A stretch of 64,000 nt of DNA from an uncultured virus (IMG/VR IMGVR_UViG_3300030329_003290) (lineage: Duplodnaviria; Heunggongvirae; Uroviricota; Caudoviricetes). The position numbers and the translations under genes were made by a program. The DNA is taken from IMG/VR virus record IMGVR_UViG_3300030329_003290; one strand, written 5' to 3'. The notes below the pieces were generated by a model. That model was not told the DNA's origin. It searched no databases and worked only from the letters and a program-made list of their open reading frames with translations. Below, one piece after another: positions 6,999 through 49,502 of this stretch (position 1 is the first letter of the stretch; each line of letters begins with the position of its first letter).

Positions 6999-9900
6999 CT
7001 ATACGAATTTCAACATACCTAAGATTTGATTTGCTGGAGCAAATGCTCCAGTATACTTATATAACTTTCCTTTGAATACAAAAGTTATACCCTCTGTTGG
7101 AACAACTGCTTTTAATCCACCAATAGCATTCAATCTATCTAATTGAGTTTTCAATGTACTCAGTACTTTTGGGTCTTTTGATTTTTTTACTTGGTTTATA
7201 GCTTTAGTCAAATCCTTACGAATTTGTTGAGCTGCTTTAGTTGGATTAGCTGCTATAAAGTCTTTCATATTCTTTAGTATTTCAGCACCCAACTCAAAGA
7301 AAAGAACTTCCCAATCTCTGATATGTTTCTTTTGTAACTTAGCGTGATCCATTTTATCAGTTGATAGAACCCAATCTAAAAACTTTGGATACTCTTTCAA
7401 ATCCTTTCTTATCTGTGGTATCTTATAAGACTTATCAAAGAATGCCCATCTCTTTGTTAGTTTCATAAGAACATCATTTGATGGATTTGGATTGTCTGTT
7501 TGTTTAGCACCATTGTAAATATATTCCATCCAATATGCTTGATGATAATCACCTAATGTAGCACTATCTGTAAGTTTGTAAATACTCTGTAATTTCTGTA
7601 ACTTACCTAAGAAGTAACTTTGTCTTTGTGCAAAGTTCTTTACTACTGGCAATTGTGTAATAAATGGTTTTGTGATACTATAGGTTTTTTGTACATTTTG
7701 ATTTATCTGTTTTATCATACCAGCTAACATTCTAGCACTACCTCTGTCCTCTCCAATTGGAGAACCAGCAGAATCATATTCAATAGTTCCGTGAAATTGT
7801 AATAGTGATTTATCATAAGGTATGACATTTGAAGTTGCTGGGTACATCACTTCTAGTGACATAAACTTTTTACCCTCAGCAAATATTTTGTCTTTTTGTT
7901 TTTTACTTAGCCCCTTTAGTGCTTTTTGTAAATCTGTCATAGCAGATACAAATGCTTTTTCTATGTCTCCTCTACCAGAAAACATATTTCTTATACCACT
8001 TATATCTAAACTATTAGCACCAAAATTCTTTATATGTCCTTTGTTTCTAGCTGCAACTAATTTTCCATTCTTCCAGCTAATCATTATATTCTGTCCATCA
8101 GTCTTTTCTGTAACAGGACCTTCTTTATCAAGATTACCTTGAAGTGTATTAATAATTAGTGTTTTAAAATCTGAAAATGTTAAATTTTTATTATCAAATG
8201 GGTGGTTTAGGTGTCCGTATGCACCACCCTCAACTAATAATTTTACTTCATTTACTATGCTAATTCTCTCTTTCATTGACATTTTTTTATCATAAGCATC
8301 AGTTTTCATATCAGATATTGTGGCAATAAAAGGAGATCTTCGTAAGGCTTTGAATGCGAGATTCTCAACTGAAAACTCCCCACCTTTTGCTAAACCAGAA
8401 CTTCTCATTCTTTTCAATCTATCTTTTATCTTATCTACCATTTTGATTACTTCATCGTATTTACCTTTTTTCATCATATCCTTTAGTACAGAAACAGAAC
8501 CCAAATAACCTTCAGCCTTTGAAGTAATATCATCTAAATCAATTTTCAATTCTTTTTTCTTTGGTTTTACTATCCACTCATCTTTTAGTATAGAATATAA
8601 TCCAGAAGCAATATGTACATCTCCTAAATTTTCAACATACATTTCAACTGGAAATCCAAAAATTGAAATGTCGTGTTCATTATTCCAAATTGTTTTTTTA
8701 GCTAAAAAGTAATTTTTTACAAACTCTTCATCATCGTCTATTTGACTAAAATCAAGTCGCAGGTGTAAATCCACATCTGAAAACTTAGACCAATTATAAT
8801 TTGAAATACTTCCAGTTAAAGTAATATCTTTTAAATCTACATCTGAATCTAAATCTAAACCATCAAAAAAGTTTTTTGCTATAACTAATAATTTTTTTCT
8901 AATTTCAGGTTTTATCTTACCATCTTTCCATATTTTTTTGTTCAGAGAATCTCTCAGAATAAAACTATTTATGACATCTGGCTTTATGTCTTCTTTGACA
9001 TTTTTCTTTTTTGGTTTTGGGTTTAAGGGACCCTCTAAATATTTTTTCGATATCATATTCACTTTACCTTTTTGTTCTTTTACAACTATCTCTGATAAAT
9101 CGTCTGGTTCTTGTAAAGTAACTGTTACTACCACCTTTCCATTTGGTAATCTTGTTCGTTCTACTTTTTTAACCTTAGCCTTTGATTTGGAACTACGAGT
9201 TATTTCTCCTTCACCCCAATAACCATCTTCTCTACTTTCATCTGGCTCTCCATCAATGAATGCACCTCTAACTTCTCCATTTGAATTTGGTTCTATTCTA
9301 AATACAATTGATGTTTGTTCTGGATTATCATTATCAACACCTGCAAAACTTCTTGCAGTTTCGGCACTTGTGCTAAATCCACTTGAACCATGTCCACTTT
9401 CATCAGGTATTTCTACCATTTCGCCTTCTTCAAAATCAGCTAAAATTTGTTCTGCTACATCATTCGGTACTGATATTCCCCTTTCTATTGGTCTATCAAC
9501 CTTAGTAATGGTAGTATGAGAAACTTCACTAATTCTTTCATTTCTTTCTCTGATTTCTTCTTCCGTAATATCACCATTTTCTATAGCATCTTGTATTGCC
9601 TCAAACCCACCAAGTTGTTTCCAACTTGCGACATCTTTCTTGATTTGTTTTCTTTCTGCTGGTGTTCTTTTCTTTTGTTGTTCTTCCCATTGGTCTCGCA
9701 TTTTCCCATCATATTCTTCTTTATCAACACCACTGTCTCCCTTTAAAAGAAAATCATCTATAAAATGTTTTTCATCTTCTTTATCTCTAATCACATCAAC
9801 ACCATCTACAACATTTGGTTTTCTATCTGGTCTATTTCTTGCCCTTTCTACTTCTTTTCTTCTCTTTTCCAACTTCTCTGGTGATATAGTTGGTGCTTTA

Positions 9901-12392
9901 ATTTTAAATTTTGGTATTTTAATTTTTGGAATTGGAATTTTTGGAACTTTAATTTTTGGTTTGGATTTTGGTTTTTCTTCACTGTCTCTTTCGAAGTCAC
10001 CACCACTCAGTTTTTTTCCACCTGACTTTTTTTCATCATCCTTATCTTTTTTATCAACTGGTTTTACACTACCCTTTTCTATAGCCTTATCTAAACTATC
10101 TTGATCATCATAATATCTTTTATCACCATCCTTAGTAACACCAACAAATGCTTCACCCAACATAAGTTTGTTTTTCCACCACTCTTTTGAGAATGTTTCT
10201 ACTACTTGAAATTCATTTGGTAAGTATGAATCCCCATCAGCACCAGCTGTCATCACACTACCAATCAAATTATCAATAGCAGCACTAGTACCCATCCAAC
10301 TTACAACATCCCAACCCAGAGGTTCTATTACATCACTCATCCATTTTTTATATTTATTTACAGCCCTATTAGAACCCTTTTCATTTCCATGATCTAAAAA
10401 AGTTAGTGGTACAGATTTGTAAGCATCCTTTATAGAATTTTTAGCACCGTCCCTTATGATATAATCTAAGACTGCCCAACCAGCATCTGCATATATAGAG
10501 TCTATCCATTCTTTTGATACTTTTACATACTCAGCATAATCTTTGTGAAATGTTGAAGGACCATCATCTAAATTACCCATTGAAGAAACAGTTGCTTCTA
10601 CCAAATACTCTTTTATCAAATCATCTGATAATGTATAAGTTTCAAACAATTTTCTGAATTTATTTGTCATCATATTATACACGCCTTTGTCAAAGTATCC
10701 AAATGCTTTTTTGAAAGTTTTTTGTCTAGCACTATCATCGTGTTTTGGGTTTCCCAATAAATCTCGCATTTTCGTACCACTCATACTTCCTTGTTGTGGT
10801 GCTGTAAGAAAATATCCGTGCTCTTCATATCCTTTTATATTACCTTTACTCTTTTTGTAATCTTGATAATAAGATAAGCCACCACTCTTCTTTTTACCAC
10901 TTCCTAATCTACCAGCATCTTTCTGTCCAAAAGCATAAACAACTGCTGTGGTATCAGCATTGAATTTTTTTAATAAGTTTTGAGCAACATAAGGTGTTTT
11001 TTCTTGTACAATTCTATTTTTAGGTATTCCCATTTTTACCATATGACGAACTTTTTCTTTGAAGTTCATTGGATGTCTAGGTGGCTGTTTTATATTAGAT
11101 GTAGTTATATAAGCTTCATCTACTTGTTTTGCTAACCACTTATATGTTGCCAAGTGTCCACTATGAAATGGTTGAAATCTACCACCGAATACACCGATGG
11201 TTTTTTTGATTTGTTTTTGTTCTTCTACTGGTTCATATCCTTTTTTCTTTTTGTTTTTCTTTGTTTGATGACCACCTGGATTTGGTTCACTGCCAGAATC
11301 ATCCCAATCATAAGTATCTGGTTCTGATATCTTACCCATATCACCAGCACCCATTGAACCTGCGTGGTGTGTATTAAATGTAGCAGTAGATTTATATGTT
11401 CCCTTAGCGGAATCTGGTTCTGCTTTTACTTTTTTAATTTTTCTTAACTGTTTGATTTTTGTAGGTAATCCTTCTTTTACAATCCTAAACTTTAAAGCTG
11501 GTCTTCCATTAATAAGCAAGTCTCCTTTTTCATTCCAACTTATATCTTTTACAACAACTTTTTTATTTTTGAATCTACCCATCATAATAGTATCACCTAC
11601 ATTTACTGGTAAATCCACATCTTCTTTTTGTAATATTTTTTGTTTCTTTATCCAATTCTTACCACGATAATTTTTTACGGGTTTTCTAATAAAATTACCA
11701 ATACCCTTTTTGACTAACATATTGAATTTTTTTGTTGCTTGTTTCGGTGATAAATGATTTGAATTATCAACCATAATAAAATTAGAGCCACCAAATAATC
11801 CTTGAAAGTAAATTTTGTTTGCCTGAACTTCTCTCCAAGATTTTTCTACTAACTCAGGATCTAATTTACGAGGTCTTTCCATATTTCTTTTTTGTGCAAC
11901 TTCTAATTCTGTATGAACAAAAACCATATAGGTATCGTAACCAATTTCTTCTAATTCTTTCTTTTGCTCTTTTATTTTTTTAAACTTATGTCCTGTACCA
12001 TCTATAATCATACCCAATCTACCATCCATGTATAATTTTTTACGGCTAGCAGTTAATTCTTTTGCTCTACCTCTCATTCCACTATAATCATCATATTTAG
12101 GATCAGTAAGTTGTCTAAATAACTCTTCTGGCATATCATCTAAATCTAAACCAAAACCATATTTCTTCAACATCCTTTCTAATTCTTTGTCTTGATTTAC
12201 CAATTTCAATCCATAAGCAGATACATTTACATTATCTGGTATACCATATATTTCACCAGCAACAAAAGATTTGCCGCTTCCTGGTCCTCCAGCAAGAAAT
12301 ACAGCTTTCAATATACCAGGATCGTTAATACCCTCTTCTATTACTTCATCTTCTAAAAAAGGTTTGATTAGATATTCTGTAAGTTTATTCAT
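6999..12392 (-). CDS. 1797-aa multi-enzyme protein: P-loop kinase + HxGH nucleotidyltransferase + ADP-ribosyltransferase-like + Pol-beta nucleotidyltransferase + KxDG ligase-like domain
   Basis: LAGGPGSGKS and IIDGT; FGGRFQPFHSGH and MSGTKMR; ERG..GFSTS..EGE; LTGSISNYNWSKFSDVDLH; EKTDGQN. Confidence 0.8.
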   Translation of the reverse strand: MNKLTEYLIKPFLEDEVIEEGINDPGILKAVFLAGGPGSGKSFVAGEIYGIPDNVNVSAYGLKLVNQDKELERMLKKYGFGLDLDDMPEELFRQLTDPKYDDYSGMRGRAKELTASRKKLYMDGRLGMIIDGTGHKFKKIKEQKKELEEIGYDTYMVFVHTELEVAQKRNMERPRKLDPELVEKSWREVQANKIYFQGLFGGSNFIMVDNSNHLSPKQATKKFNMLVKKGIGNFIRKPVKNYRGKNWIKKQKILQKEDVDLPVNVGDTIMMGRFKNKKVVVKDISWNEKGDLLINGRPALKFRIVKEGLPTKIKQLRKIKKVKAEPDSAKGTYKSTATFNTHHAGSMGAGDMGKISEPDTYDWDDSGSEPNPGGHQTKKNKKKKGYEPVEEQKQIKKTIGVFGGRFQPFHSGHLATYKWLAKQVDEAYITTSNIKQPPRHPMNFKEKVRHMVKMGIPKNRIVQEKTPYVAQNLLKKFNADTTAVVYAFGQKDAGRLGSGKKKSGGLSYYQDYKKSKGNIKGYEEHGYFLTAPQQGSMSGTKMRDLLGNPKHDDSARQKTFKKAFGYFDKGVYNMMTNKFRKLFETYTLSDDLIKEYLVEATVSSMGNLDDGPSTFHKDYAEYVKVSKEWIDSIYADAGWAVLDYIIRDGAKNSIKDAYKSVPLTFLDHGNEKGSNRAVNKYKKWMSDVIEPLGWDVVSWMGTSAAIDNLIGSVMTAGADGDSYLPNEFQVVETFSKEWWKNKLMLGEAFVGVTKDGDKRYYDDQDSLDKAIEKGSVKPVDKKDKDDEKKSGGKKLSGGDFERDSEEKPKSKPKIKVPKIPIPKIKIPKFKIKAPTISPEKLEKRRKEVERARNRPDRKPNVVDGVDVIRDKEDEKHFIDDFLLKGDSGVDKEEYDGKMRDQWEEQQKKRTPAERKQIKKDVASWKQLGGFEAIQDAIENGDITEEEIRERNERISEVSHTTITKVDRPIERGISVPNDVAEQILADFEEGEMVEIPDESGHGSSGFSTSAETARSFAGVDNDNPEQTSIVFRIEPNSNGEVRGAFIDGEPDESREDGYWGEGEITRSSKSKAKVKKVERTRLPNGKVVVTVTLQEPDDLSEIVVKEQKGKVNMISKKYLEGPLNPKPKKKNVKEDIKPDVINSFILRDSLNKKIWKDGKIKPEIRKKLLVIAKNFFDGLDLDSDVDLKDITLTGSISNYNWSKFSDVDLHLRLDFSQIDDDEEFVKNYFLAKKTIWNNEHDISIFGFPVEMYVENLGDVHIASGLYSILKDEWIVKPKKKELKIDLDDITSKAEGYLGSVSVLKDMMKKGKYDEVIKMVDKIKDRLKRMRSSGLAKGGEFSVENLAFKALRRSPFIATISDMKTDAYDKKMSMKERISIVNEVKLLVEGGAYGHLNHPFDNKNLTFSDFKTLIINTLQGNLDKEGPVTEKTDGQNIMISWKNGKLVAARNKGHIKNFGANSLDISGIRNMFSGRGDIEKAFVSAMTDLQKALKGLSKKQKDKIFAEGKKFMSLEVMYPATSNVIPYDKSLLQFHGTIEYDSAGSPIGEDRGSARMLAGMIKQINQNVQKTYSITKPFITQLPVVKNFAQRQSYFLGKLQKLQSIYKLTDSATLGDYHQAYWMEYIYNGAKQTDNPNPSNDVLMKLTKRWAFFDKSYKIPQIRKDLKEYPKFLDWVLSTDKMDHAKLQKKHIRDWEVLFFELGAEILKNMKDFIAANPTKAAQQIRKDLTKAINQVKKSKDPKVLSTLKTQLDRLNAIGGLKAVVPTEGITFVFKGKLYKYTGAFAPANQILGMLKFV

Positions 12393-12436
12393 AATTTCCT
12401 ATATTCCTATTCATATATAAATATAAAGTTTATAGA

Positions 12437-15400
12437 TTATGGGTCGAATGTAACTTCTACATTGAAACAAATATCTTTGATTGTTGCTGATGAGTTTGTA
12501 GAGCCACCCCCATTTTGCATAGTTACAACACCATTCAATCGGTCTCCAGCACTAAATGTATAAGTTCCGTAATCCCAAGTTGTAGCACCACTGTGATTAT
12601 TGGTATCATCTGTTGTAGTAGTAGTACTTACCGCTACTGAAGAACCATTTATATAAACTTTTGGTTTTACTGAAGTATCTGCTCCACTAGCACCAGCTGT
12701 AGTTTGTGAGACTATATCAAAAATCCAACCTATTCCTGTAACCGAACCAGCTCTAGTCATTATAATACCTTTATTACTGTCAAATGTTACAGAGTCCGGA
12801 CCAACTAAGTAAGTTGCTGTTTCGGCAGTACCAGCAGCACTTTCTAAACTTGCATCACGAGCAAACACAAAGTTTGAACTTCTTGGTCCAACTGGTGCTC
12901 CAGCATAATGAAATCCATCTGAAGCAGTAACCGATATATGGTTTGTATTAAATCTTATCAAGGTATCAGTATCGCCACTATGTATAATATCATTTCCAAC
13001 TTGTAAGTAAGCCATTGAGCCTGTTTTTGTAACTGAGAGATCTTGCATTGTTGAAAGGTCTCCATTTACCTGTACTTGTCTTAACGGACCCGAAACACTA
13101 CCTACCCATACATTACTTTCTATGACTGTGTTGTAATCAAGTGAGTTGTGAAGTGTAACTGCACCTCCACCTCTACCAGTATGTAGTCCAATAAATGGAG
13201 CAGCACTACCATCAGAATTTTCTGCAGCACCACCATCCAAGCCTTCACATATAGTAACAGAACCACTTAGTGCTGGGTTTAACCTTATAAATTCATAACT
13301 ATTTCCTATGGTATGAGCATCTGGTGCGCCACTACTATCATGATAGTTAATAAGTTCAAGTCCCCTTTGTCGGCCTTGAGGCATATGCCCGTATCTAATA
13401 ATACCCTGATCATCAGATATGTAGTCGAGTCCCATAGCTATTTGCATATCCGTTCCATCAGCACCAAATCGATTTGAAGCACCTTCAATAATCATTTGAT
13501 TATATGTTGTCTGTCCACGAAGAACTATTCCGCCTGATGCAGAAACAGCGTTGGTGTTACCCAATTCCAATCCGCCCATTTTAGCACCTTGCAAAGTAAT
13601 TTCACCCATCTGCGCTATTCGAGTACTTCCACTTGTAAATGTTATATCACCACTTAACTCCAGATCAGTTGCATTAACATCACCATTTAAAGCAACTCCA
13701 AAATTTGGTGTGGTTATTTGTATTGAACTACCTGAGATTTTAGCAGAAGATGCTGATATTGCACCAGCAGTATTTATTTGAAATGGTGCTTCATGACTAA
13801 CTACATTACCGACCGAAACCCTAACTGCCGCGTTGCCATCACGACCACCATCGGTTTCACTTCTTGCATCTAATTTTATTATACGATTAGCATCTAGTCC
13901 TAAACCCGCACCCATAACTATCTGTCCACTAGAACCTGAAACTATAAAGTTAGCAGTAGATGATTGTAATTTTCTGTCTGCAATATTGAAACCACCTACT
14001 GAACCCTCCACTGCATCAATTTTTCTAACCGTTATATCCCCATCAGGTGCTATATGAAACTTAGATGAACTTATTTCTATATTACCAGCAGCACCACTTA
14101 CAAATTGATTAGCACCACCTAAATAGAAAGTAGATGCGCTCATTACTAAATTAGTTCCATCAAATTGAACACGATTACCTGTTGAAGTTCCAATCAAAGC
14201 CCTTGACGCAGTAATAGACCCACTTATTTCCATTACTTTATTTTTAGTATCCAAATGAAATGCGCTTGAACTAATTTCTATATTGTTATTTGAACCACTT
14301 ACAAAATTTTGATTCAAATCACCAAGTAAAAATGTTGGAGCTTCTAATTTTATTTGAGAACCAGATAGAAATGCCACTTCACTCATTAATCCAAAACCAG
14401 TAAAATCGGCTGGTACATTTCTTGTACCCGCAACTCCACTCAAATCACCAACACGAGTTTTTAGTTCAACATCATATGGTTTTGAACCTGTTCTTTCTAC
14501 AATATCTATATATGGTGTTGCCTGATTATTTGGATTAGCATTTAATCTGATATATCCAGTACCAATTTTTCCTGTTGACGCAAATACTTGTCCAGGATGA
14601 TAAGAAGTTGATGCGCCACCAGTATCTCCTACCGAACCACTGTCTGTACCAGCACCAAATGAACTAGCAATAGATCTTGTAACATATATTCTACCGTAAA
14701 CATCTCCAGCACCTGAGTCTCCATCTAAAGAAGCACTATCTACTTGCATATATTCTGTTGTAAATCCTGTATCAGTAACTTTTTTAGCTATTAATATTTC
14801 ACCACTCTCAAATCCTGAAGCGTTAGCAACACTCATTGTCGTATCTGTTTTACTAGCAGTAAGTGAACCTGAAAGTGTTGTTGAATTTGCTACAAATAAT
14901 TGACCACCCACAGCATTTACAGATTCTTTTTCAAAGGTAGTTGTAGCCATCGTACCTCTTACTCTTATATTTTCAAATTCAGCATATCCATTTTCTTCAG
15001 CTGAAATAATAAATCCTGCTATATCGCTCTGATAATCTGATGACTTTACAGTACCAGCTTTATTCAATACTAAATTGCCACCAGTTATTGTAGAATCTCC
15101 AAGTGCCCATCCACCAATAGTACCACCGACAAAGTTTACATTTGAACCAGTTACATCTCCACCAGCCCTAACATTGAATTTAGAAGATGATATAAAATAT
15201 CCGCTCGTATCTGTAACAGAAGAACTAATAAAAAATGTATTTCCAGCAGTAAATGCATCATCTGATAATTCAAAAGCAGCTATTTTACCACCCGTAAATT
15301 TTACATTAGAACCCGTTATTTGTCCTGAAGCAGACATAACAAGACTCTTATTACTACTGTGTATTGCTACATCATTTACAGTAAATCCAGCTATAGACGC

Positions 15401-18010
15401 TGAAACAAATTTTGCAAATCCCGTTGAATTTATACTCGCACTAGCATTAGCTAATGTTGATGGGCTACCACCAATTGTAGCAGGTGTTTGTATATTATCA
15501 ACCGATAAATTACCCTGAACTGTAAGTTGTCCCGCATCAAATTGTAAATATTGTCCACCACTCTTGTCACCTAATAGAATAGCACTAGCAGTTACATCCC
15601 CCTCTGGTGTTATGTGCATTCCTGACGAACTTATTTCAATAGCACCACCAGAACCACTTATGAATTGTGTTGTAGTTTTACCCACAAAGAATGAATCTGC
15701 CTGTACATCAAATACACTTGGATTAGTTCTAAACTTTAATGAACCACTTTGTCCAATTAATTCTAAACCAACTCCAGCATAATTGTCACCACTATCTGGC
15801 AAAACCGAACCACTATAAATCATAAATCCATATGTTCCACCAAGAGAAGCATTAGAAGCTGATTTGAATCCTAAGTAACCAACCGACCTCATAAATCCTG
15901 AACCTTTAGCTCCTGATGCGCCTGTTTCAGGAAGTGTGGAAGATACACCACCAAAGTGCATTCCACTAGCAGTTGTATCTCCACCTATAAATAAATCACC
16001 ACTCATATTGTTATCATCACCTGTAATAACCATATTAGCACCTGTAAATAATGAACCACTATTGAAAGCAATAGAATCTGCTATGTTATTATTAGGATCA
16101 TAAAATTCAACCATAAACTCAAATGTTTCTGGACGCTTGTGTTGATATTCTGCTGGCATTTCCTTATCGAATTCAAAGAAAGATGGTGAAAATCCAGTAT
16201 CAACGGATGGTGTTATAGAAATATCTGATATAAACCAATTACCATCAATGACTCTAAATTGTAATATACCATCACCAGTTACATCTGCTGTAAATTCGTG
16301 AGTGACAAGTTTAAAATCTACTTCACTATCATCGACATCTTTTATTTCTAATTCACCAAGTCTCTTTCCATAAGCAGCTGTTTCTGTTATTGGGTTTTCT
16401 GTATGTTCATCTATCAATGGTACTGGTTGTTGATACATCGAAGAGCCAGATATATAAGGTACTAATAATGCTCTATTAGAAGTTCCCTTTTTACCATAAG
16501 CCACAAATGATAATGTATAATCTAAACCAGCAGTCAAATTAAACTTATAAGCATCTTTCAACTCAAACCTAAGTTGATTTTCAAATGTACTTAAACTTCC
16601 AGATAAATTTACTGCATCTAATACTGTATCGTTGTCGAAGTTCATAACTTCAGTTGAACTGACAGATAATCCATTAGTACTACCAAATTTTTGCCAATAG
16701 GTATTTATATCGGATTGATTTTCGAAGTATCCACTCCTTTCCCCTCTACCAACAGAGTTAGTATCTATCAATAATTCTGATGATTCTACAGGTACTTCTG
16801 ATAAAACTTTGAAGTCATCAAATGAGCCTTCAGGTCTAACATAAACTTTTGCCTTAAAAACATCACCTGAAAATGTTCTCATCTGAGATAACTTTACTTC
16901 AGCATAAGACATAATATTAGTAAGTGAATAAGAAGCAGTTATCTCTGGCATAAATACTGTTTGTGCTGTACCAAAGAAAGGTAAAACTATTTCTTCTCCA
17001 TCAGCATTAGTTTGTGTATATGGTTTTGTAACAAATGCTGTTTTACTATTTCCAATATCTTCTATTGAACTTGTATTGACAGATGAAAGTGTTGGTGGAA
17101 ATGTTAGTTTTAATTCTTGAAATTGTTCTTCATTATACTTAGTCGTATCAATAGACTTTAATATTATATCACCATCAATTTGCTTTGTAGTAAAATTATG
17201 GTCGGTACCAGGTATTCTATAACTGTATGGGAATTCTTCTGGTGAACTTCTTTTAGCTATATGTCCAGCTCTTTTGAATATACTAAATCTTCTTTTACCT
17301 TTTTTGTTCTTAAAAGACTTTTTCATTCTGTTGAATTTGCCAGTTTTATTTTTAGACTGAACAATCTTCGTAGAAGTTTCTGCTAAAGCACCTTGTTTCG
17401 GTTCTTCTGTACTAAAGGGGTTAAAACTAAATCCGTCTTGTGGTATACCCTCAACAGTAAATGTGGAACTACTGATTGAAGCAGTCGAATCAGTTCTAAC
17501 CATCGTTCCAAGTCTTCTTTCAGTAACACTAATTTTTGGTTGTGTGTAAAATCTAATTGGTTGTGTGTTGATGGCTACTGGATTTATTATAACTTCACGA
17601 GTCAATCTCACATTATATGCACCTTGAAATTCTGCTGGTACTGGTTCAGTATCAGAAAATAAACCAGGACCTGTAGGTACTTCATCTAACTCACCAACTA
17701 TAATAATATTAGCAGGACCAGGTGCGGTATCACTATAAACCTCTACTGATATTCTTCTTGAAGTACCCTCTAAATAATCAGCTACGGGTTCTGTGTATAT
17801 TGAATTACCCTCACTATCGACAAAATCTATAAGTAAGTCTATGCCCTCTTTCATATATGGACCTGTCTCTATAAGGAAAGAACTTTTTCCTTGTGGCAGA
17901 CTTTCTGGCATATCTGAAATAACGATATGTGTCGATTGATTTAAATCATCAATCAATACATCTAGTTCATCTAAGTCTTTTAGTGGATTATATCTCTTTA
18001 CGACACTCAT
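12437..18010 (-). CDS. Large virion structural protein, tail fibre/baseplate-attached
   Basis: 1857 aa, Gly/Ser/Thr-rich, repeated FxSGSxGxIEISSSxxH and GGxIGG/IAGF beta-strand units. Confidence 0.7.
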   Translation of the reverse strand: MSVVKRYNPLKDLDELDVLIDDLNQSTHIVISDMPESLPQGKSSFLIETGPYMKEGIDLLIDFVDSEGNSIYTEPVADYLEGTSRRISVEVYSDTAPGPANIIIVGELDEVPTGPGLFSDTEPVPAEFQGAYNVRLTREVIINPVAINTQPIRFYTQPKISVTERRLGTMVRTDSTASISSSTFTVEGIPQDGFSFNPFSTEEPKQGALAETSTKIVQSKNKTGKFNRMKKSFKNKKGKRRFSIFKRAGHIAKRSSPEEFPYSYRIPGTDHNFTTKQIDGDIILKSIDTTKYNEEQFQELKLTFPPTLSSVNTSSIEDIGNSKTAFVTKPYTQTNADGEEIVLPFFGTAQTVFMPEITASYSLTNIMSYAEVKLSQMRTFSGDVFKAKVYVRPEGSFDDFKVLSEVPVESSELLIDTNSVGRGERSGYFENQSDINTYWQKFGSTNGLSVSSTEVMNFDNDTVLDAVNLSGSLSTFENQLRFELKDAYKFNLTAGLDYTLSFVAYGKKGTSNRALLVPYISGSSMYQQPVPLIDEHTENPITETAAYGKRLGELEIKDVDDSEVDFKLVTHEFTADVTGDGILQFRVIDGNWFISDISITPSVDTGFSPSFFEFDKEMPAEYQHKRPETFEFMVEFYDPNNNIADSIAFNSGSLFTGANMVITGDDNNMSGDLFIGGDTTASGMHFGGVSSTLPETGASGAKGSGFMRSVGYLGFKSASNASLGGTYGFMIYSGSVLPDSGDNYAGVGLELIGQSGSLKFRTNPSVFDVQADSFFVGKTTTQFISGSGGAIEISSSGMHITPEGDVTASAILLGDKSGGQYLQFDAGQLTVQGNLSVDNIQTPATIGGSPSTLANASASINSTGFAKFVSASIAGFTVNDVAIHSSNKSLVMSASGQITGSNVKFTGGKIAAFELSDDAFTAGNTFFISSSVTDTSGYFISSSKFNVRAGGDVTGSNVNFVGGTIGGWALGDSTITGGNLVLNKAGTVKSSDYQSDIAGFIISAEENGYAEFENIRVRGTMATTTFEKESVNAVGGQLFVANSTTLSGSLTASKTDTTMSVANASGFESGEILIAKKVTDTGFTTEYMQVDSASLDGDSGAGDVYGRIYVTRSIASSFGAGTDSGSVGDTGGASTSYHPGQVFASTGKIGTGYIRLNANPNNQATPYIDIVERTGSKPYDVELKTRVGDLSGVAGTRNVPADFTGFGLMSEVAFLSGSQIKLEAPTFLLGDLNQNFVSGSNNNIEISSSAFHLDTKNKVMEISGSITASRALIGTSTGNRVQFDGTNLVMSASTFYLGGANQFVSGAAGNIEISSSKFHIAPDGDITVRKIDAVEGSVGGFNIADRKLQSSTANFIVSGSSGQIVMGAGLGLDANRIIKLDARSETDGGRDGNAAVRVSVGNVVSHEAPFQINTAGAISASSAKISGSSIQITTPNFGVALNGDVNATDLELSGDITFTSGSTRIAQMGEITLQGAKMGGLELGNTNAVSASGGIVLRGQTTYNQMIIEGASNRFGADGTDMQIAMGLDYISDDQGIIRYGHMPQGRQRGLELINYHDSSGAPDAHTIGNSYEFIRLNPALSGSVTICEGLDGGAAENSDGSAAPFIGLHTGRGGGAVTLHNSLDYNTVIESNVWVGSVSGPLRQVQVNGDLSTMQDLSVTKTGSMAYLQVGNDIIHSGDTDTLIRFNTNHISVTASDGFHYAGAPVGPRSSNFVFARDASLESAAGTAETATYLVGPDSVTFDSNKGIIMTRAGSVTGIGWIFDIVSQTTAGASGADTSVKPKVYINGSSVAVSTTTTTDDTNNHSGATTWDYGTYTFSAGDRLNGVVTMQNGGGSTNSSATIKDICFNVEVTFDP

Positions 18011-18076
18011 ATCTATAAATATAAAACCGATAAAAAATAATACTTATTATATATACAACATATGGAGATTATCGGT

Positions 18077-18250
18077 ATGAAAAAGAAATATTCGTTTACT
18101 ATAGAAGAATCGCTAATGGATTGGTTCAGAATATATGTTAGAGAAGAAAGCACCACGATGAGCGCTGTCTTGAACCAGTATGTTTTGAATTTAAAGAGGG
18201 GACAAATAAAACCTAAGAAAATAATGTATTCTAATCAAACATCACATTAG
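18077..18250 (+). CDS. Ribbon-helix-helix (CopG/Arc-like) DNA-binding protein
   Basis: MKKKYSFTIEESLMDWF...TTMSAVLNQYV fits beta-alpha-alpha pattern; GGAG RBS before ATG 18077. Confidence 0.7.
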   Translation: MKKKYSFTIEESLMDWFRIYVREESTTMSAVLNQYVLNLKRGQIKPKKIMYSNQTSH

Positions 18251-21200
18251 AAAAAGTATTTTCTTTCTTTATTTCTAATAAAGTATCTACAGCATCTCGC
18301 ATAGAATCTATGTGTGAGACAATCATTGTGAATTGAAATTGTGATTTGAGATATTGAAATAAGTTATAAACAGAGTTTAGATTGTCCGAATCCATAGTTC
18401 CCCAACCCTCATCAATTGCCAGAAAGTTAGGTGCTGGTAGATTAGATACATTTATCAATCCCACACGCATAGCTAGAGAGGAGATAAATCGTTCCATACC
18501 GCTACTTAGTTCAAGAGGCCATACATTGTCATCATCATACACTATGTAACAATTAATATTCTTACCATCCATTTCTAATATCATAGAAAAGTCTACAATT
18601 TGAGAAAGTATATCATTTACGGCACCCTCAATTGTCGGAATTGCTTTTGATATAAGTTCATAAGGTATACCATCTCTTTTTACAGCATCCATATAATACT
18701 GATAAGCAGCATACTTATCTTCCAACTTTTCTACTTTTTTGATATTAGACATTATATTTCTACGATTAGTCTCTAATACTTTTATTTCACCATTTACAGA
18801 TTGAAGTTTTTTATCTAATTCTTCTATGGTTTGTTCTAATGATTCACTTTCATTTTCCATCTCATCTATTTCTTTTTGTAAACCAATATTATATTGTATA
18901 TCTTTTTCTTGTTCGTGATATAGATTTATTTTATCTTCAATAATAGCTAATTGACTAATAAGATTTTTCTTTTTCTCTTTAGTAAGCTTTTGATTACTGT
19001 CAACTTTACTGATATTAGCAGTTAGTAAACTAAAACTTTGAATACACTCATCCATTTGTTCTTTATGTTTCGTAATATGCGCTAAGCCATTTATAATTGT
19101 TTCCAATGAATCTGATTGTTTTACGAACTTATCTGCAAGCTTTTTATCTTCATTCAATTTCTTTTCAGTTTCCATAGCATCTAAAGTAAATGGATTACTC
19201 ATACAATAAGAACAGCTTGAGTCATATTCTAAATTACCCAACTTATTTATCTTATCAAGTTTGTTCTGCACTTCTATTTTTAGCTTATCTATCTCAATCT
19301 GATTATTTCTTTTTTCTAAAGTGTATTGTTCTAATTGGGCAAATTTTTTATCTATCTCATTTTCTTTATAGATATTTATTTTTTCAGTTAGTTCCGTTTC
19401 TTCAACTTTATATTGTTCTGAAAGAGTTTTTAGTTTACCAACTTTTGTATCAGCATCTGACAATTCATTGATTAGTCTATTTTTTTCTTCTTCTAACTCT
19501 GATATATTTAGAGCAGAGTTATCCACTTTTTTTAATTTTTTAGTTAATGAAATTATCAATTTATCTACTTCTTTTTTATCATCAACATTTTCTTTCTTTT
19601 CTTTTGATAGAGATCTAGAATCTTTTCTTAGTTCAGTTAGTGATTCTTTTATATCTGCCAGTTCTGTATCATAGTTATTATTTTTGAAAGACTTTAATAA
19701 CGAACTGACATCGTGTATCTCTTCAGCAGCTAAACCATATAATTGGTCAAATACACCAATACCCATAAATTGTGCTAATAAATCTTTTCTTTCTTTTTGT
19801 GTCTTATCAATAAAGACAGTTGAATTGGATTGTAAAGAAAGTGCAGTCATAATAAAATCTTCATAAGTACCGATAACCTTACGGATATTTACATCCGTTG
19901 TTCGTCTTTGGTCTCCATTCAAAGATAGTTTTTCTCCCGCATCATCGAATGTCCAAAAATCTACATCAACTTTTACATGACCATTTCGAAGTTTTTTACC
20001 TTTTCTTTCTATAAAATATTCACAGCCATCAACTTCCAATGTGGCTTTACAATAAAAATTATTCTTTTTACTATTTAGAACATTAGATGCTTTATAAGCT
20101 CTTGATGATGTGTCGAATAAACAAAATGATAAAGAGTCTAATAAAGAAGATTTACCACTTGCATTTGGAGCAAATATTCCAACAATACCATTTAGTTTTG
20201 TGAAATCAACTACATTGTTTTCTCCGTAACTAAACATATTATCAAACTCAAACTTTTTTACATCCCAAGTAATACCTCTATTTACATCATCTGCTGGTAA
20301 AAAAGTATTTAGTTCTTTGTTTATTTTCTTTATATCTAATAGAGTCTCACTATCTACAAAGTGATTTGTTTTTAAATACTCTTCTATCAACCCATATTGA
20401 TAATCAGCATCTCTAACATCACCTACTGTAATTCTTTGTCCTCTTACTTTTTCTTGTGATGTTAGTGAATCTGTTCTTGTAACAGAAACTTCTTTTATAC
20501 CATATGTGCTATGAATCATAGTCATAGCTTTTTTCAATTGTGATGGTGTTGTATTAGATACCCTAACTCTCAATCTAGCTTTTTTGGGAATATCAGGACA
20601 GTCTGGCACCTTTCCATTATCAATGTCAATAGTATAATAGCCGTAGTCATTTGGTATTTCTATATACTCAGATTTTCTCTTTGCTACATCCCATAATAGG
20701 TATCCGTGTGATAAACCCTCTCCGTGGTTCTGTTGAACCAAGCTACCACAATAGGATATAGTCCCTTTCTTATCTAGGTGTTGTCTTTTGTGGATATCTC
20801 CAAGCAACCCCAAATCATAACCTTTGAACTTAGATATTTTCACATCAGATGGTAAGTGAAAACCTAAGTCTGTTTCTGACTTATCCACTGTTCCGTGAAA
20901 GAGAACTATCTTTGTTTTACCGTCAATATCTTTAGCCTCAATGTAGTCGTCTTCCTTTTCCCATACATCCCATACAACAAATTTTACATCAGCACATTTA
21001 TACACACCACTATGTTTTAGGTAATGTAATTGTGAATGTTGTAGGTTATTTACAATTGGGGAAAGTACATCCATTCTAGATCGATTATTTAGATTACAAT
21101 CGTGATTTCCCGCGATTAATATCGTAGGACAGATGTCTGCCAGATTCTTAAATAATCGTGAGAGTTGGTCGACTAACTCGGGTGACATTTCGGTTTTTGA

Positions 21201-21386
21201 GTGAGCTATATCACCACCAATATAGACTACGGCATTATCTTTATGTTTTTTTACTTCTTCGTATGTTCTTTCGAAAACCTCTTCGTATTCTTTATGACGC
21301 TTTAGATTACGAATTTGTATATCTGAAATGTGGTGTATGTATTTGAGTTTTCGAAAAGGAACTTTTACAACAGTTTCTTTTATCAA
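18231..21386 (-). CDS. Fused Mre11/SbcD nuclease - Rad50/SbcC ATPase (gp47-gp46-like)
   Basis: SDIQ, GGDIAH, AGNHD, GDIH phosphoesterase motifs; NASGKSS Walker A, CSYC zinc hook, SSGME signature, IDEG Walker B. Confidence 0.92.
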   Translation of the reverse strand: MIKETVVKVPFRKLKYIHHISDIQIRNLKRHKEYEEVFERTYEEVKKHKDNAVVYIGGDIAHSKTEMSPELVDQLSRLFKNLADICPTILIAGNHDCNLNNRSRMDVLSPIVNNLQHSQLHYLKHSGVYKCADVKFVVWDVWEKEDDYIEAKDIDGKTKIVLFHGTVDKSETDLGFHLPSDVKISKFKGYDLGLLGDIHKRQHLDKKGTISYCGSLVQQNHGEGLSHGYLLWDVAKRKSEYIEIPNDYGYYTIDIDNGKVPDCPDIPKKARLRVRVSNTTPSQLKKAMTMIHSTYGIKEVSVTRTDSLTSQEKVRGQRITVGDVRDADYQYGLIEEYLKTNHFVDSETLLDIKKINKELNTFLPADDVNRGITWDVKKFEFDNMFSYGENNVVDFTKLNGIVGIFAPNASGKSSLLDSLSFCLFDTSSRAYKASNVLNSKKNNFYCKATLEVDGCEYFIERKGKKLRNGHVKVDVDFWTFDDAGEKLSLNGDQRRTTDVNIRKVIGTYEDFIMTALSLQSNSTVFIDKTQKERKDLLAQFMGIGVFDQLYGLAAEEIHDVSSLLKSFKNNNYDTELADIKESLTELRKDSRSLSKEKKENVDDKKEVDKLIISLTKKLKKVDNSALNISELEEEKNRLINELSDADTKVGKLKTLSEQYKVEETELTEKINIYKENEIDKKFAQLEQYTLEKRNNQIEIDKLKIEVQNKLDKINKLGNLEYDSSCSYCMSNPFTLDAMETEKKLNEDKKLADKFVKQSDSLETIINGLAHITKHKEQMDECIQSFSLLTANISKVDSNQKLTKEKKKNLISQLAIIEDKINLYHEQEKDIQYNIGLQKEIDEMENESESLEQTIEELDKKLQSVNGEIKVLETNRRNIMSNIKKVEKLEDKYAAYQYYMDAVKRDGIPYELISKAIPTIEGAVNDILSQIVDFSMILEMDGKNINCYIVYDDDNVWPLELSSGMERFISSLAMRVGLINVSNLPAPNFLAIDEGWGTMDSDNLNSVYNLFQYLKSQFQFTMIVSHIDSMRDAVDTLLEIKKENTFSNVMFD

Positions 21387-22995: not shown

Positions 22996-23382
22996 TTACA
23001 ACCACTTAGATAACTCTCTTTTAGCAAACCTTTCTGCTTTCTCTTCCCATTTATTGTCATCGTGTGGGTCTAATCCATCATAAGCAGCCATTGTGCCAGC
23101 TTGAGTATATTTCTTTATGAACTTTTTTACGCCTAGTCTTTTAGCATCAAGAGCGTGTTTTATTTCATGCAATACAGTCATAAGAAATTCTTTTACAGTT
23201 GGGTAAGATCTTCTAAGAGTTATAGTGTCGGTTTCAGGAACATATTCTCCCATATCTTTGCCAGTTCCTATTTTTATTTTAGATTTCAGTCCATATTGCT
23301 TTACTAAATTTTTAGTAATATCTAAATAATCTATTCTTTCCAACAGAAAGGAATGATTCATCATTTTTGTAAACTTTCCCAC
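22996..23382 (-). CDS. Zincin-like metallopeptidase
   Basis: VLHEIKHALD (HExxH) and downstream WEEKAE third ligand. Confidence 0.75.
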   Translation of the reverse strand: MGKFTKMMNHSFLLERIDYLDITKNLVKQYGLKSKIKIGTGKDMGEYVPETDTITLRRSYPTVKEFLMTVLHEIKHALDAKRLGVKKFIKKYTQAGTMAAYDGLDPHDDNKWEEKAERFAKRELSKWL

Positions 23383-25097
23383 TATCTTCTCCCACCTTTA
23401 TCCATTTTAGAAAACTTTTTAAGTTTATCAAATGCTCTAAACTGACTTAATTTTTTTTGTTTAGTCCATTTCATTTTATCAAATACTTTCATTCTCATAT
23501 GCTGTTTTACTATATAATAAATATCAAGAACATTTCCACCCATTGATTTTATCCACTTAGCATATTTTTTAACAAGTTTAGCTGATACATGCTCATGACC
23601 ATAATGAGTGATAAATCCTTTCTTTGGATGTATAGCTGCAGTTTCATCCTTTCCTATGTCGTGAAATAATGCTGCTAAAGCAAAATCTATATCACCAGTT
23701 TTCAATGCTCTATTTGTAACTGCGATTGTATGTTTCAGAACACTACCCTCTGGATGAGCATCTCTTCTTTGGTCATAATTCTTAAGATTATAAACCCTCT
23801 TCTTTAAATCACTTGGCAGTGCATTATAAATGTCTCTAAATTTCTTTGGTTTAGGTCTTACTGCTATTTCATTCATACCAAGTTTCTTTCTTAACTTTTG
23901 AATTTCCTTACTAATCTTCTTTTGAGCTGGGCTTCCTGGCATCATTTTCATCGCCATTGAATAAAGTTTATACAGTTTTGCCTTATCACTATTTTCATTT
24001 AGGAATTTATCCTTTTCCATATTTTGTATTGCTTTGCCTATATCTTTCCCTTTTAGGTTCTTTGGAACATCACTACCCTTTACTGATAATTTAAACCTAA
24101 CTAATTTCTTAAAGTCTTTTCCAATATATTTACCCCATTTGATAATTTGACTTTTACTTAGTTTTGTTTTTTCTTGAAACTTTTTAATTAAGAAAATATT
24201 ATCAGGTTTGAAATTTTGTAATGAATTCAAAAACTGAATATCAATAATTTCTTGATTGGTATAACCTAATCCATTTAAGTTCCGTATTGATCTTACAACA
24301 TTTTTTCGTAAAATCCAAGCTAAAAATAAAATATAATCGTTTTCATTTATATATGGAGCATTGATTTGAAAACCAGGTAATATCTGTTTTGTAAATCCTA
24401 ATTCATCCGAAAGTTGTAAATACTTTTTAGTTGATTTTGCCTTTTTAATTGACTTTACAAACTCATCCCTAATTCTTTCACTACTAACACCCCTTAGACT
24501 GGGATTTTCTTTCAATGCTTTTTCAGTCTCTCTACCCAATTTGCCACCAAGTGCACCTTGAAACCTTAGTGCTCTCATCTTTCTCAATGGGTCTTCATCA
24601 AATCTATCAGCAGCTTTTCCAACCGTTCTGATTTTTTTCTTTTTCAAATCGGCTATTCCACCAACTAAATCAACTATCTCACCTCTATCTAAATCATAGA
24701 ATAAAGCGTTTATTGTTAAGTCTCTTCTTTTTACATCACCCTCGATGTCGGTATAATCAACTGAACTTGGGCGTCTCCCTTTACCAATATCCTTTCTGAA
24801 TGTTGCTATTTCGTGTCCACCAACTATCACGACACCGAATTGTTTTCCAACCTCTACGGTTTTCAATCCACCTTTTTTTGCTATTCGTAATACCTCTTCA
24901 GGTTTAGCATCGGTGGCTAAATCAAAATCTTTTGGGTTCTTTCCTAATATTGCATCTCTAACTGCTCCACCTACAACAAAAAGTTTTTTATTATTTTTCT
25001 TAAAAAGTCCGTGTATTTTTTTTATATCAGATGGGATATTTAGTTTAAATTTAGAGTACTCATTCAATAATATATCTTGTAGTTTAAGCATCGTCAA
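23382..25097 (-). CDS. cca: Class II tRNA nucleotidyltransferase (CCA-adding family) with C-terminal HD domain
   Basis: VGGAVRD, DFDLAT, RRDLTINAL, EDPLR, ERIRDE; HPEG..HT..LFHDIGK..GHE. Confidence 0.85.
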   Translation of the reverse strand: MTMLKLQDILLNEYSKFKLNIPSDIKKIHGLFKKNNKKLFVVGGAVRDAILGKNPKDFDLATDAKPEEVLRIAKKGGLKTVEVGKQFGVVIVGGHEIATFRKDIGKGRRPSSVDYTDIEGDVKRRDLTINALFYDLDRGEIVDLVGGIADLKKKKIRTVGKAADRFDEDPLRKMRALRFQGALGGKLGRETEKALKENPSLRGVSSERIRDEFVKSIKKAKSTKKYLQLSDELGFTKQILPGFQINAPYINENDYILFLAWILRKNVVRSIRNLNGLGYTNQEIIDIQFLNSLQNFKPDNIFLIKKFQEKTKLSKSQIIKWGKYIGKDFKKLVRFKLSVKGSDVPKNLKGKDIGKAIQNMEKDKFLNENSDKAKLYKLYSMAMKMMPGSPAQKKISKEIQKLRKKLGMNEIAVRPKPKKFRDIYNALPSDLKKRVYNLKNYDQRRDAHPEGSVLKHTIAVTNRALKTGDIDFALAALFHDIGKDETAAIHPKKGFITHYGHEHVSAKLVKKYAKWIKSMGGNVLDIYYIVKQHMRMKVFDKMKWTKQKKLSQFRAFDKLKKFSKMDKGGRR

Positions 25098-26016
25098 GGG
25101 TTATTTCACCTTCTCGATCTTGATACCATTTACGGAATTGTGCAGGTGTGCCAATTGTTATTTTATTTTCAGGTACAAGCTTTAACAATTCTTTTTTATG
25201 TGCTTCTACAGGTCTATCGAATCCAGAATCGTGTTGGAAATAATAATCGTCCCAAACTCTACTCAACACAAACACATCTTTGATTTTTACATTATAAATA
25301 ATTATTTCATTCCACCACGCAGAGGTTTTTCTAGATGGTTGTGTGATATTTTTTATTACTATATCTTTCTTTTTTTTCAATAATTTATTTGTAGTATCTA
25401 CATATTTTTTTATATGTTTAGCAACAATAGGTCCTAATTCTTTTTTAACAATTTTACTTATTTCATTGTATCGTATATCAGCATTTTTAGGATCATCTTC
25501 AACTTTTCTCACTATTTTATTTTCTATTTCTCTCCATCCATCATAATCAGGCAATCCAGCTTTCTGAATAGCATCCCTTACAACCATATTATCTCCACCA
25601 AATATATGATGTCCCATTACCCATCTACGACCAGTTCTATCTGGCACAGTATCAAAATCCATATATTTTCTTGCTAACAATAAACCCTCAACATGGAATA
25701 TCACACCACCACTACCAGTTTGTACTCCACGACCTTTTGCCAATTGAGATGATTTGTTAGCTTTGGTAAATGTTGATATTGATTTTTTCTTACCCAATAC
25801 ATCTTTTATACTTTTTATATGATGTGGGCTTGTAACATGAAATGAATTTATTGGTATCTTACCGATAATATTTTCTATTGTCTTTGGGTATAGTGGAACA
25901 TAGTTTCGAGTAAGTGTCCACGATAAAGCATCTCTCGTATGTGCGGGATACCACTCTCTATTACCCTGCAATCCCACATACATACTTTCAATTAATAAGT
26001 CTTTTAGTTTAATCAT
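25084..26016 (-). CDS. Hypothetical protein with MIKLKDLLIE leader
   Basis: 310 aa; contains FHVT, SISTFT, WWNEII. Confidence 0.65.
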   Translation of the reverse strand: MIKLKDLLIESMYVGLQGNREWYPAHTRDALSWTLTRNYVPLYPKTIENIIGKIPINSFHVTSPHHIKSIKDVLGKKKSISTFTKANKSSQLAKGRGVQTGSGGVIFHVEGLLLARKYMDFDTVPDRTGRRWVMGHHIFGGDNMVVRDAIQKAGLPDYDGWREIENKIVRKVEDDPKNADIRYNEISKIVKKELGPIVAKHIKKYVDTTNKLLKKKKDIVIKNITQPSRKTSAWWNEIIIYNVKIKDVFVLSRVWDDYYFQHDSGFDRPVEAHKKELLKLVPENKITIGTPAQFRKWYQDREGEITLDDA

Positions 26017-28767: not shown

Positions 28768-28842
28768 AGTTTACTCCTAAAATGTATCTGTATATGGTTA
28801 GATTGATATCATATATAAATATAGTCATATCAAAATTTTATG

Positions 28843-40046: not shown

Positions 40047-40090
40047 ATAAAACTCCTATATTATATAAATATGTTTTTATTAGAAAATCT

Positions 40091-48578: not shown

Positions 48579-48633
48579 TCTATTCCTTATTCAATTATCA
48601 TTTAGTAAATAGCCTTGCTGGCCAAAAATTTTG

Positions 48634-48705
48634 AGCGGTGGGTTGGAGTCGAACCAACACCTTTTTGATGGAATCAAAACGACTTTCCTATAAGTCTTCC
48701 ACCGC
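48634..48705 (-). tRNA. tRNA-Gly(UCC), atypical
   Basis: GCGGTGG/CCACCGC acceptor, U73, GACT/AGTC D-stem, TTTTG-ATTCCAT-CAAAA anticodon arm, GTTGG-TTCGACT-CCAAC T-arm; CCA not encoded. Confidence 0.88.
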
Positions 48706-49406: not shown

Positions 49407-49429
49407 GGTTTTTTTATAACTTTTTCTTG

Positions 49430-49502
49430 TGGAGCTGACAGGAATCGAACCTGCGACCTCCGCAGTGCAAGTGCGGCGCTCTCCCAACTGAGCTACAGCC
49501 CC
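49430..49502 (-). tRNA. tRNA-Ala(UGC)
   Basis: GGGGCTGTAGCTCAGTTGGGAGAGCGCCGCACTTGCACTGCGGAGGTCGCAGGTTCGATTCCTGTCAGCTCCA; G3:U70; CCA not encoded. Confidence 0.97.

Follow-up and report, generated by a model that had tools for sequence, protein, structure and literature searches.

The principle of capsid targeting has been known from phage T4 since 1996, and in encapsulins a short portable peptide likewise directs unrelated enzymes into an HK97-fold shell, these tags being usually C-terminal, uncleaved and bound directly by the shell protein. Internal proteins II and III of T4 (NC_000866) both begin MKTYQEFIAE↓A (arrows here and below mark the junction after Glu). The ten-residue capsid-targeting sequence (CTS) of T4 brings a protein fused to it to the scaffolding core and is removed by gp21, as outlined in PMC10229621; the gp21 sites reported for T4 Alt are ITE-6 and LTE-619 (PMC5694885), and the internal proteins of T-even phages are described as highly diverse, with the CTS alone conserved (PMC3012670). 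In a stretch of 64,000 nucleotides from an uncultured virus (IMG/VR record IMGVR_UViG_3300030329_003290; the whole of this stretch is referred to as the window), three proteins share an N-terminal leader related to MIKLKDLLxE. This leader recurs throughout a large clade of uncultured marine T4-like myophages as a portable and almost exclusively N-terminal peptide, and comparison of the sequences suggests that it and its sister classes are probably T4-type capsid-targeting propeptides. The principle is an established one; the novelty lies in the lineage, in the leader sequence and in how many cargo families, and what kinds of cargo, bear it.

Two further systems invite comparison. Giant-phage propeptides (phiKZ gp175, SPN3US gp245; MEROPS S80) resemble the leader in that many inner-head proteins are cut after Glu, within a short motif, by a distant relative of gp21 and in that paralogs can have identical N-termini (PMC5694885), but they are mostly longer than 100 residues and carry an A/S/G-x-E motif, whereas the clade leaders comprise 9-15 residues, with L or I at P3 and a plain S77 protease. 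The ART-PolyVal and zincin MPTase families of the polyvalent proteins were predicted by Iyer et al. 2017 to be virion-delivered (PMC5512222), and zincin MPTase-PolyVal, ART-PolyVal, kinase and nucleotidyltransferase domains, with predicted delivery together with the DNA, connect that work with the cargo described here. Unlike in polyvalent proteins, the domains of the marine clade mostly stand in single genes, each with a tag of its own, and the available part of PMC5512222 mentions no N-terminal leader. Judged by titles, the papers found in literature searches on capsid targeting deal with T4, P1, P22 and the giant phages, none with this clade, and a literature search for the string MIKLKDLL found no paper.

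In the window, the initial annotation had seen a common leader on six minus-strand N-termini (starts at 521, 12392, 23382, 25091, 26016 and 57917), all of which are present. Three of them (26016, 25091 and 57917) begin M-I/L-K/R-L-x-x-L/I-L-x-E and belong to proteins that have no mutual similarity beyond the leader. A strict form of this pattern matches 3 of 385 N-terminal positions and none of 19,675 internal positions; since it was derived from these N-termini, only the contrast between N-terminal and internal positions counts. A weight matrix trained on 13 leaders of relatives, with the window sequences excluded, agrees with the pattern, the best score among 19,731 internal window positions being 9.6 (Table 1 gives the scores of the leaders). 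The resemblance of the three canonical leaders is not due to chance, and the common leader on unrelated proteins is thereby confirmed. The other three, which the initial annotation had placed, as looser copies, in the same motif, do not belong there: the 521 ORF (open reading frame) scores -2.1, and the other two fall outside the nine best N-termini, the lowest of which scores -2.1. They are distinct leader classes, each conserved in relatives, and not weak copies of the canonical tag. Leader ends in the window read LIE, LNE, LNE, ITE, FLE and LLE.

By portal protein, the closest named relatives of the window are Microcystis phage Mel-JY01 and Flavobacterium phage vB_FspM_immuto (hereafter immuto), with 50-54% identity. 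At least 597 portal relatives were confirmed among at least 600 matched stretches in IMG/VR, and the best 80 of these, with 58-94% portal identity, were analysed. Among 836 non-nested ORFs from the 80 portal loci plus the window, a loose form of the leader pattern occurs at 46 of the 4,180 positions that lie within the first five residues and at 4 of 238,027 internal ones, while the strict form gives 34 N-terminal matches and no internal match, counts that are not independent events because the loci are phylogenetically related. With the leader left out of the comparison, BLASTP groups the 42 tagged ORFs near portal genes into 15 cargo clusters. A back-translated pattern search of IMG/VR for exact MIKLKDLLxE gave at least 129 matching stretches; flanking DNA was taken for 80 of them and yields 80 distinct ORFs, almost all of which begin at most a few codons after the preceding in-frame stop, and the 77 with at least 40 codons form 44 cargo clusters. 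A tag that is portable between varied cargoes, as first proposed, is thus what the clade displays.

Most of this cargo is without a recognisable family. Pfam matches at E≤0.001 were obtained for 8 of 46 representatives of tagged families, 38 having no match, and five exceed the curated cut-off: two zeta/AAA_33 kinases, a phage lysozyme, DUF6321 and ART-PolyVal (47.5 bits). A zincin MPTase match stays below its cut-off, and cluster 0 starts with MANIKLKDLLNE. Position 9 of the leader is variable in the 80 IMG/VR leaders, in which Glu10 was imposed by the search pattern; in a 26-sequence alignment of the family of the 310-amino-acid (310-aa) window protein, where it was not imposed, Glu10 is invariant. 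The distribution of the tag within a genome is clearest in a 165-kb relative (G007; CheckV 79%, 157 ORFs), in which two N-termini alone score above 8 (29.5 and 26.8), both in the interval between protease and capsid gene, and none of the replication, nucleotide or sugar-metabolism genes carries the tag. The objection that early non-virion proteins could carry the motif just as often is not borne out in these 157 ORFs. In a 296-kb record (G010), at least six paralogous genes that all start MIKLKDLL[LT]E stand in tandem at about 208.3-217.6 kb (L218-L221), some 65 kb away from the S77 protease and gp23 genes of that genome.

The junction between leader and cargo is best seen where homologous cargo bears different leaders. 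The sister classes have the consensus sequences MISLLEIA..N.xE, MDKLTEFLTKPFLxE and MGKFKKMME, all leader classes end in [L/I/F]-x-E, and at least four coexist in one genome. The kinase domain G.RDPGIFK...GGPGSGK stands behind MNKLTEYLIKPFLE(DEVIEE) in the 1797-aa giant protein of the window, whose relatives start with MDKLTEFLTKPFLNE and continue with G.RDPGIFK, as in G007; standing alone, it follows MIKLSELLHE in one locus (L077) and MIKLKDLLMENIDE in another (L155). Members of the 521 family read MISLLEIAHNITE↓ADVDDDKIIKYKNKDGE in one form and MIKLKDLLTE↓IDDEKIIKYKDKDG in another (homolog L209), and a family continuing ...GEPDTGF is found behind MGKFKKMME↓ and, alternatively, behind MIKLKDLLDE↓. 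In the zincin family, the homolog with the canonical leader has about 60 extra residues ahead of the shared domain. The CCA-adding enzyme family has five different N-terminal extensions that all end in [L/I]-x-E just ahead of the domain; in extensions such as ...LNE↓Y, ...LLE↓S, ...LNE↓S and ...LLE↓D, the conserved start KLxLxxPxDI follows almost at once, and leaderless homologs begin M(S/Y)NLKLNIPSDI, right after the position of the Glu. In the window enzyme, homology to other phage enzymes begins at residue 13-20; a canonical-like leader is present in 76 of 120 close homologs, and the enzymes of the unrelated phages AS-zj and Tunturi_5 lack a leader extension. The natural leader swaps on the kinase, 521 and GEPDTGF cargo are the strongest evidence for a protease-type junction and, as they occur on homologous cargo at one junction, they argue that the leader classes do the same job.

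The place of tagged genes in the genome also varies. In 34 of 37 related loci, the gene that follows a fibre-like gene of 339 aa has an MGKFKKMM-like start, which is found there on three different bodies; of the remaining three cases, two are cut short and one is the twin contig of the window. The 310-aa and CCA genes are inserted at this locus in the window and its twin contig only, and a homolog of the 310-aa gene lies downstream of the capsid module in another relative (L008), sites whose difference indicates that tagged genes move about.

A protease of the kind that such a junction calls for is encoded in the head module of the relatives. In one locus (L007), the fourth gene downstream of the portal gene, at 14236-14838, encodes a 200-aa Peptidase_S77 (T4 gp21 family, E 5e-28), and a 552-aa Gp23 is encoded at 17828-19486. 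S77 proteases are also present in G007, G009, G010 and G014, and tblastn finds them in 34 of the 80 portal loci, the others being mostly too short; Mel-JY01 and immuto have a prohead protease and a gp23-type capsid gene annotated downstream of the portal. Nine loci reach from the protease to the capsid gene, and in every one of them the interval contains one or two tagged ORFs. The capsid protein of the relatives itself has sites of this type, LLE54↓N and LIKE63↓A, immediately ahead of the part matching mature T4 gp23* in the alignment (query residue 75 corresponds to residue 25 of the mature T4 gp23 chain). Between the portal gene and the protease position, the window encodes a tentative prohead-core protein (717-1436) with no Pfam or PHROG family match, whose counterparts in relatives read ...ELDE↓AS and ...LIDE↓VS; the scaffold-position gene of the clade is scaffold-like and likewise has no family match. 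The MISLLEIA... gene (521 family) directly precedes the protease in six inspected relatives with at least 75% portal identity and is absent from two with 58-59%. The window breaks off inside this gene, and its own S77 protease is predicted, from synteny, to lie just beyond the edge. A homolog of ribosomal protein S21 (PF01165, E 3.5e-13) is encoded in the same module, between tagged gene and scaffold (L007, 16407-16634), with equivalents in L004, L008, L015, L017 and L038 and a like annotation in Mel-JY01.

Compared with T4, the marine clade shows the same combination of a peptide of about ten residues at the N-terminus of otherwise unrelated proteins (IPI-III, Alt and gp24 in T4, cut by gp21) and a head module with a gp21-family (Peptidase_S77) protease, a T4-type portal, a gp23-type capsid protein and a scaffold-like gene, and in both a conserved tag sits on hypervariable cargo. 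MKTYQEFIAE and MIKLKDLLNE both have ten residues, hydrophobic positions 4, 7 and 8, an acidic position 6 and Glu at position 10, and both leaders end in [L/I]-x-Glu. The clade leader is not a sequence homolog of the CTS, however, as the two share Met1 and Glu10 only, though we consider it likely to work like one. The marine tag differs further in being conserved nearly letter for letter across a very large clade and on dozens of families, in having at least four interchangeable classes in one genome and in its cargo, which, unlike the small basic DNA-binding proteins of T4, includes large enzymes (CCA-adding/HD, kinases and the 1797-aa giant).

The cultured relative immuto, annotated with a prohead core serine protease, has a leader of its own. 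Four of its proteins (MW353175; starts 1803, 103806, 117631 and 118632), one annotated as cob(I)alamin adenosyltransferase, begin with about 24 residues that contain two [L/I]-x-E sites and follow the consensus MENFDLKKFLVEN[KR]LT.N..L..E, i.e., ME(N)(T)FDLKKFLVEN[KR]LT.N..L..E. This longer leader suggests that tags are lineage-specific and matched to lineage-specific cores. Literature searches found no paper on Mel-JY01 and, for immuto, no virion-proteomics title.

The proposed pathway would begin late in infection, when the tagged protein is made together with the structural proteins, as gene overlaps and a common late-type promoter motif suggest. By analogy with T4, the tag would then dock the protein to the scaffolding core while the prohead assembles. 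The Glu of [L/I]-x-E is the proposed cleavage point, after which the gp21-type Peptidase_S77 prohead protease would cut; this protease and the form of the site are observed in the relatives. The mature cargo would stay in the head and enter the cell with the DNA. For the window, the predicted cargo consists of the CCA/HD enzyme, the 310-aa protein, a small zincin-like peptidase, a 119-aa protein and the 1797-aa kinase/nucleotidyltransferase giant. The initial annotation had already proposed capsid targeting, and what that proposal predicts for the sequences, namely an N-terminal position, portability, selection on the peptide, the [L/I]-x-E end, protease neighbours in relatives and absence from the replication and sugar-metabolism genes of the 165-kb relative, is found in every respect.

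If the tag acts as the T4 CTS does, injected proteins become predictable from sequence alone in a clade of at least 597 marine contigs, and the tagged families form a list of candidate proteins of first-minute host takeover and counter-defence. Complete enzymes may then travel in the head, among them a tRNA-repair enzyme and a multi-enzyme protein of 1797 aa, and the natural tag of ten residues could be used to bring foreign proteins into the heads of non-coli phages. We tentatively raise the further possibility that the leader is a readable label of the whole injected set of the clade (tRNA repair, zeta-type kinases, nucleotidyltransferases, ART-like proteins, zincin), which would neutralise tRNA-targeting or nucleotide-depleting defences before phage expression. 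No precedent for a virion-borne CCA-adding enzyme was found in the literature searched, where a query for virion proteomes that include a tRNA nucleotidyltransferase led to unrelated phage papers. With its own leader, immuto makes the idea directly testable.

Other explanations of the leader can be weighed against these data. A chance likeness of Lys/Ile/Leu-rich N-termini would have its ground in composition, as proteins encoded at 32% G+C are richest in K, I, L and N, but it is refuted by the 34 N-terminal matches of the strict pattern, set against none at 238,027 internal positions, by the matrix scores and by the exact tag on 44 clusters. It is also very unlikely that the common start is a feature of the nucleic acid, either a late-gene initiation enhancer or a 30-nt homology patch for cassette exchange, with a peptide that has no role. 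Such a reading could draw on the MGKF class, which occupies one fixed locus with swapped bodies, and on codon 5, which is AAA in 74 of 75 distinct leader DNAs, A/U-rich codons after the start being able to favour initiation. All other codons, however, vary synonymously at about background rates, with a choice that resembles that of gene bodies (Leu4: TTA 50, CTT 12, CTA 10, with TTG also in use for Leu), and the 20 nt upstream of the leaders show no conservation, which together indicate that selection acts on the leader peptide. Moreover, the peptide pattern with its invariant final Glu is kept across leader classes that have no common DNA.

The remaining alternatives accept a functional peptide and differ in what it does. 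An uncleaved docking peptide for another assembly or partner (baseplate or tail, membrane, chaperone) is the least improbable of them, though we regard it as unlikely: two tagged window genes do end a tail-fibre/baseplate-distal operon, and the four tagged genes that stand in a row in a 207-kb IMG/VR record (G011; CheckV estimate 100%) adjoin fibre-like genes in a genome in which no head protease was detected, but in nine of nine spanning relatives the interval from head protease to capsid gene contains the tagged genes, the leader classes all end in a protease-type [L/I]-x-E, and leaderless homologs begin exactly after that Glu. Improbable to a somewhat greater degree is a propeptide that silences or times enzymes through the phage protease with no storage in the capsid. 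The Glu-ended junction and a possibly toxic enzymatic cargo (zeta-type kinases, ART, peptidases) would fit such a role; a disordered ten-residue peptide, however, is unlikely to inhibit 59 different folds, the head module encodes many cargoes that are small proteins and not enzymes, and T4-type prohead proteases are described as acting inside the prohead (PMC5694885).

Several observations weigh against capsid targeting itself. The literature searched yields no proteomic, N-terminal or biochemical datum for any tagged member, and the kinship of the relatives deprives the counts across loci of independence. None of the three canonical window genes is part of the head module: two close the tail-fibre operon, and one stands among accessory genes near the endolysin gene. 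The S77 protease predicted for the window from synteny would lie one gene beyond its edge. In G011, leader-like N-termini number at least six (at 104-106 kb and 151 kb) and occur together with T4-like replication genes, and no S77 protease, gp23, T4 portal or structural protein of the clade was found in it by Pfam, protein query or tblastn with ten clade proteins. Finally, a CCA-adding enzyme has an obvious intracellular job that needs no packaging, and the tRNA-Ala gene of the window is followed by CAA, not CCA; the enzyme could serve the maturation of the phage tRNAs (tRNA-Gly, tRNA-Ala and tmRNA in the window).

With regard to the cargo itself, the 569-aa product of the CCA gene is a class II tRNA nucleotidyltransferase with an HD domain, CCA-adding by prediction, its PF01743 (PolyA_pol head, 114 bits), PF12627 (PolyA_pol_RNAbd, 28.4) and PF01966 (HD, 35.3) domains all being above cut-off. 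In other marine contigs (P0183, P0232, P0234-P0243), the CCA/HD enzyme is fused to a zeta-type kinase, a cytidylyltransferase or DUF2608, which indicates that the same modules occur as single tagged genes and as polyvalent giants; the 1797-aa giant and the CCA-kinase fusions are polyvalent in form. At the DNA level, comparison of the region with GenBank phages gave nothing beyond two short 70-75% matches, both inside the CCA gene.

The 310-aa protein belongs to an abundant marine phage family, of whose 120 listed homologs 109 keep M[IVF][KL]LK[DE]L[ILV]xE; it has no Pfam or PHROG match, and tblastn against phages was empty. Its AlphaFold model has a pLDDT of 71, with residues 1-31 disordered. 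A Foldseek search of the PDB with this model gave a best E of 0.5, and nothing at E≤0.001, with several ARTs among the weak rows, and VIA-align gave Tpt1 at Z 4.5 and CteC at Z 3.8, none reaching Z≥5. As the ART-fold rows are recurrent but not significant, we do not call the protein an ART, and our data do not lend support to the earlier ART label. Complex prediction for residues 1-45 of the family with an S77 protease alignment scored 0.00 in two runs without controls and says nothing either way. The 128-aa protein matches PF18818 (MPTase-PolyVal) with E 3.4e-4 and 21.1 bits, under the curated cut-off of 27.5, and the phrog_87 metallo-protease with E 6e-5. For the 119-aa protein, a Cys-His-Asp enzyme had been suggested; this is not established, as Pfam, PHROG and phage tblastn searches gave no match and the Protein Atlas places it in viral clusters without a family. 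The gene directly downstream of it encodes a membrane protein (Table 1).

The expression context of the three tagged genes at 26016-22996 is that of a putative late operon. Start-on-stop overlaps of 4, 8 and 1 nt link them to one another and to the structural gene upstream, the ATG of the 310-aa gene overlapping the stop of the structural gene as ATGA, and from 28767 to 22996 there is no gap of 35 nt or more. The overlaps make co-transcription plausible, as had been suggested; the operon at whose end the genes lie has to be corrected from baseplate to tail-fibre/baseplate-distal. The motif ATATTTATA that heads this operon also precedes 2280, 12392, 18010, 40046, 54796 and 55560, and a copy with one mismatch stands before the gene at 58224, the next one upstream of the 57917 gene; on the coding strand the motif stands before structural and giant genes. 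Of 15 plus-strand TATAAATA sites, 8 fall in the few intergenic gaps upstream of structural genes, and gaps that bear promoter-like motifs include 2281-2328, 12393-12436, 28768-28842, 40047-40090 and 54797-54839. Promoter-like motifs of the TTGAC[TC]T type precede the replication-gene block from 22845 as well as 53812, 50017 and 49386, and the two motifs may represent a late (ATATTTATA) and an early (TTGAC[TC]T) class. The T4 late promoter TATAAATA on the coding strand was rejected as a candidate, with 5 matches only, not placed before genes, and a generic sigma-70/terminator scan stayed at shuffle background (34 found, 32.6 expected).

Table 1. Positions in the window of the leaders, cargo genes and other features discussed.
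Feature	Position	Strand	Evidence or remark
Acidic head-module protein, cut by window edge	3-521	-	Leader class MISLLEIAHNITE
Fourth leader class MISLLEIAHNITE, of 521 ORF	483-521	-
Head-module protein, tentative prohead-core protein	717-1436	-	N-terminal helix ending LLDE; between portal and protease position
T4-type portal gene	2329-4146	-	Head-module marker; PF07230, E 2e-73
Multi-enzyme giant, 1797 aa (zeta/AAA_33 kinase, cytidylyltransferase)	6999-12392	-	Pfam
Third leader class MNKLTEYLIKPFLE, of 1797-aa giant	12351-12392	-
SbcD-like metallophosphoesterase fused to SbcC/SMC-like ATPase	18231-21386	-	One ORF of 1051 aa
Zincin-like metallopeptidase, 128 aa	22996-23382	-	HEIKH motif; PF18818, phrog_87
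Second leader class MGKFTKMMNHSFLLE, of 128-aa protein	23338-23382	-	GTG start
tRNA nucleotidyltransferase (CCA-adding type) with C-terminal HD phosphohydrolase, 569 aa	23382-25091	-	Pfam; phrog_2244, E 1e-65
Leader MLKLQDILLNE, codons 1-11 of CCA-adding enzyme	25059-25091	-	Matrix score 9.6; one-residue insertion
310-aa cargo gene	25084-26016	-	636 homologs at E≤0.001
Leader MIKLKDLLIE, codons 1-10 of 310-aa protein	25987-26016	-	Matrix score 23.5
Intergenic late-promoter-like motif ATATTTATA (coding strand)	28814-28821	-	Heads operon of three tagged genes
DruA (Druantia defence protein) match	47385-48578	-	PF14236, E 2e-26; phrog_19197
tRNA-Gly(tcc)	48633-48705		Adjoins tmRNA
tRNA-Ala(tgc)	49429-49502		Adjoins tmRNA
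tmRNA, full-length	50479-50905	-	Rfam RF00023, 70.2 bits (gathering score 47); not called by ARAGORN
Peptide deformylase	52216-52851	-
Hsp20 small heat-shock protein	55021-55560	-
Membrane protein, POPDC-like N-terminus and cyclic-nucleotide-binding domain	56915-57556	-
119-aa protein with canonical leader	57558-57917	-	Homolog L173 starts MIKLKDLLME
Leader MIRLKHLLNE, of 119-aa protein	57888-57917	-	Matrix score 16.0
CobS/MoxR-type AAA ATPase	62363-63553	-

The window has 32% G+C and carries essentially all its genes on the minus strand. Besides the portal, its recognisable genes encode a T4-type large terminase, baseplate proteins of the gp25 and gp6/J types, a primase, an endolysin, a DNA methylase and several giant proteins. 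A homolog of the DruA match is also present in G011, and the fused SbcCD-like nuclease has the same length of 1051 aa in relatives.

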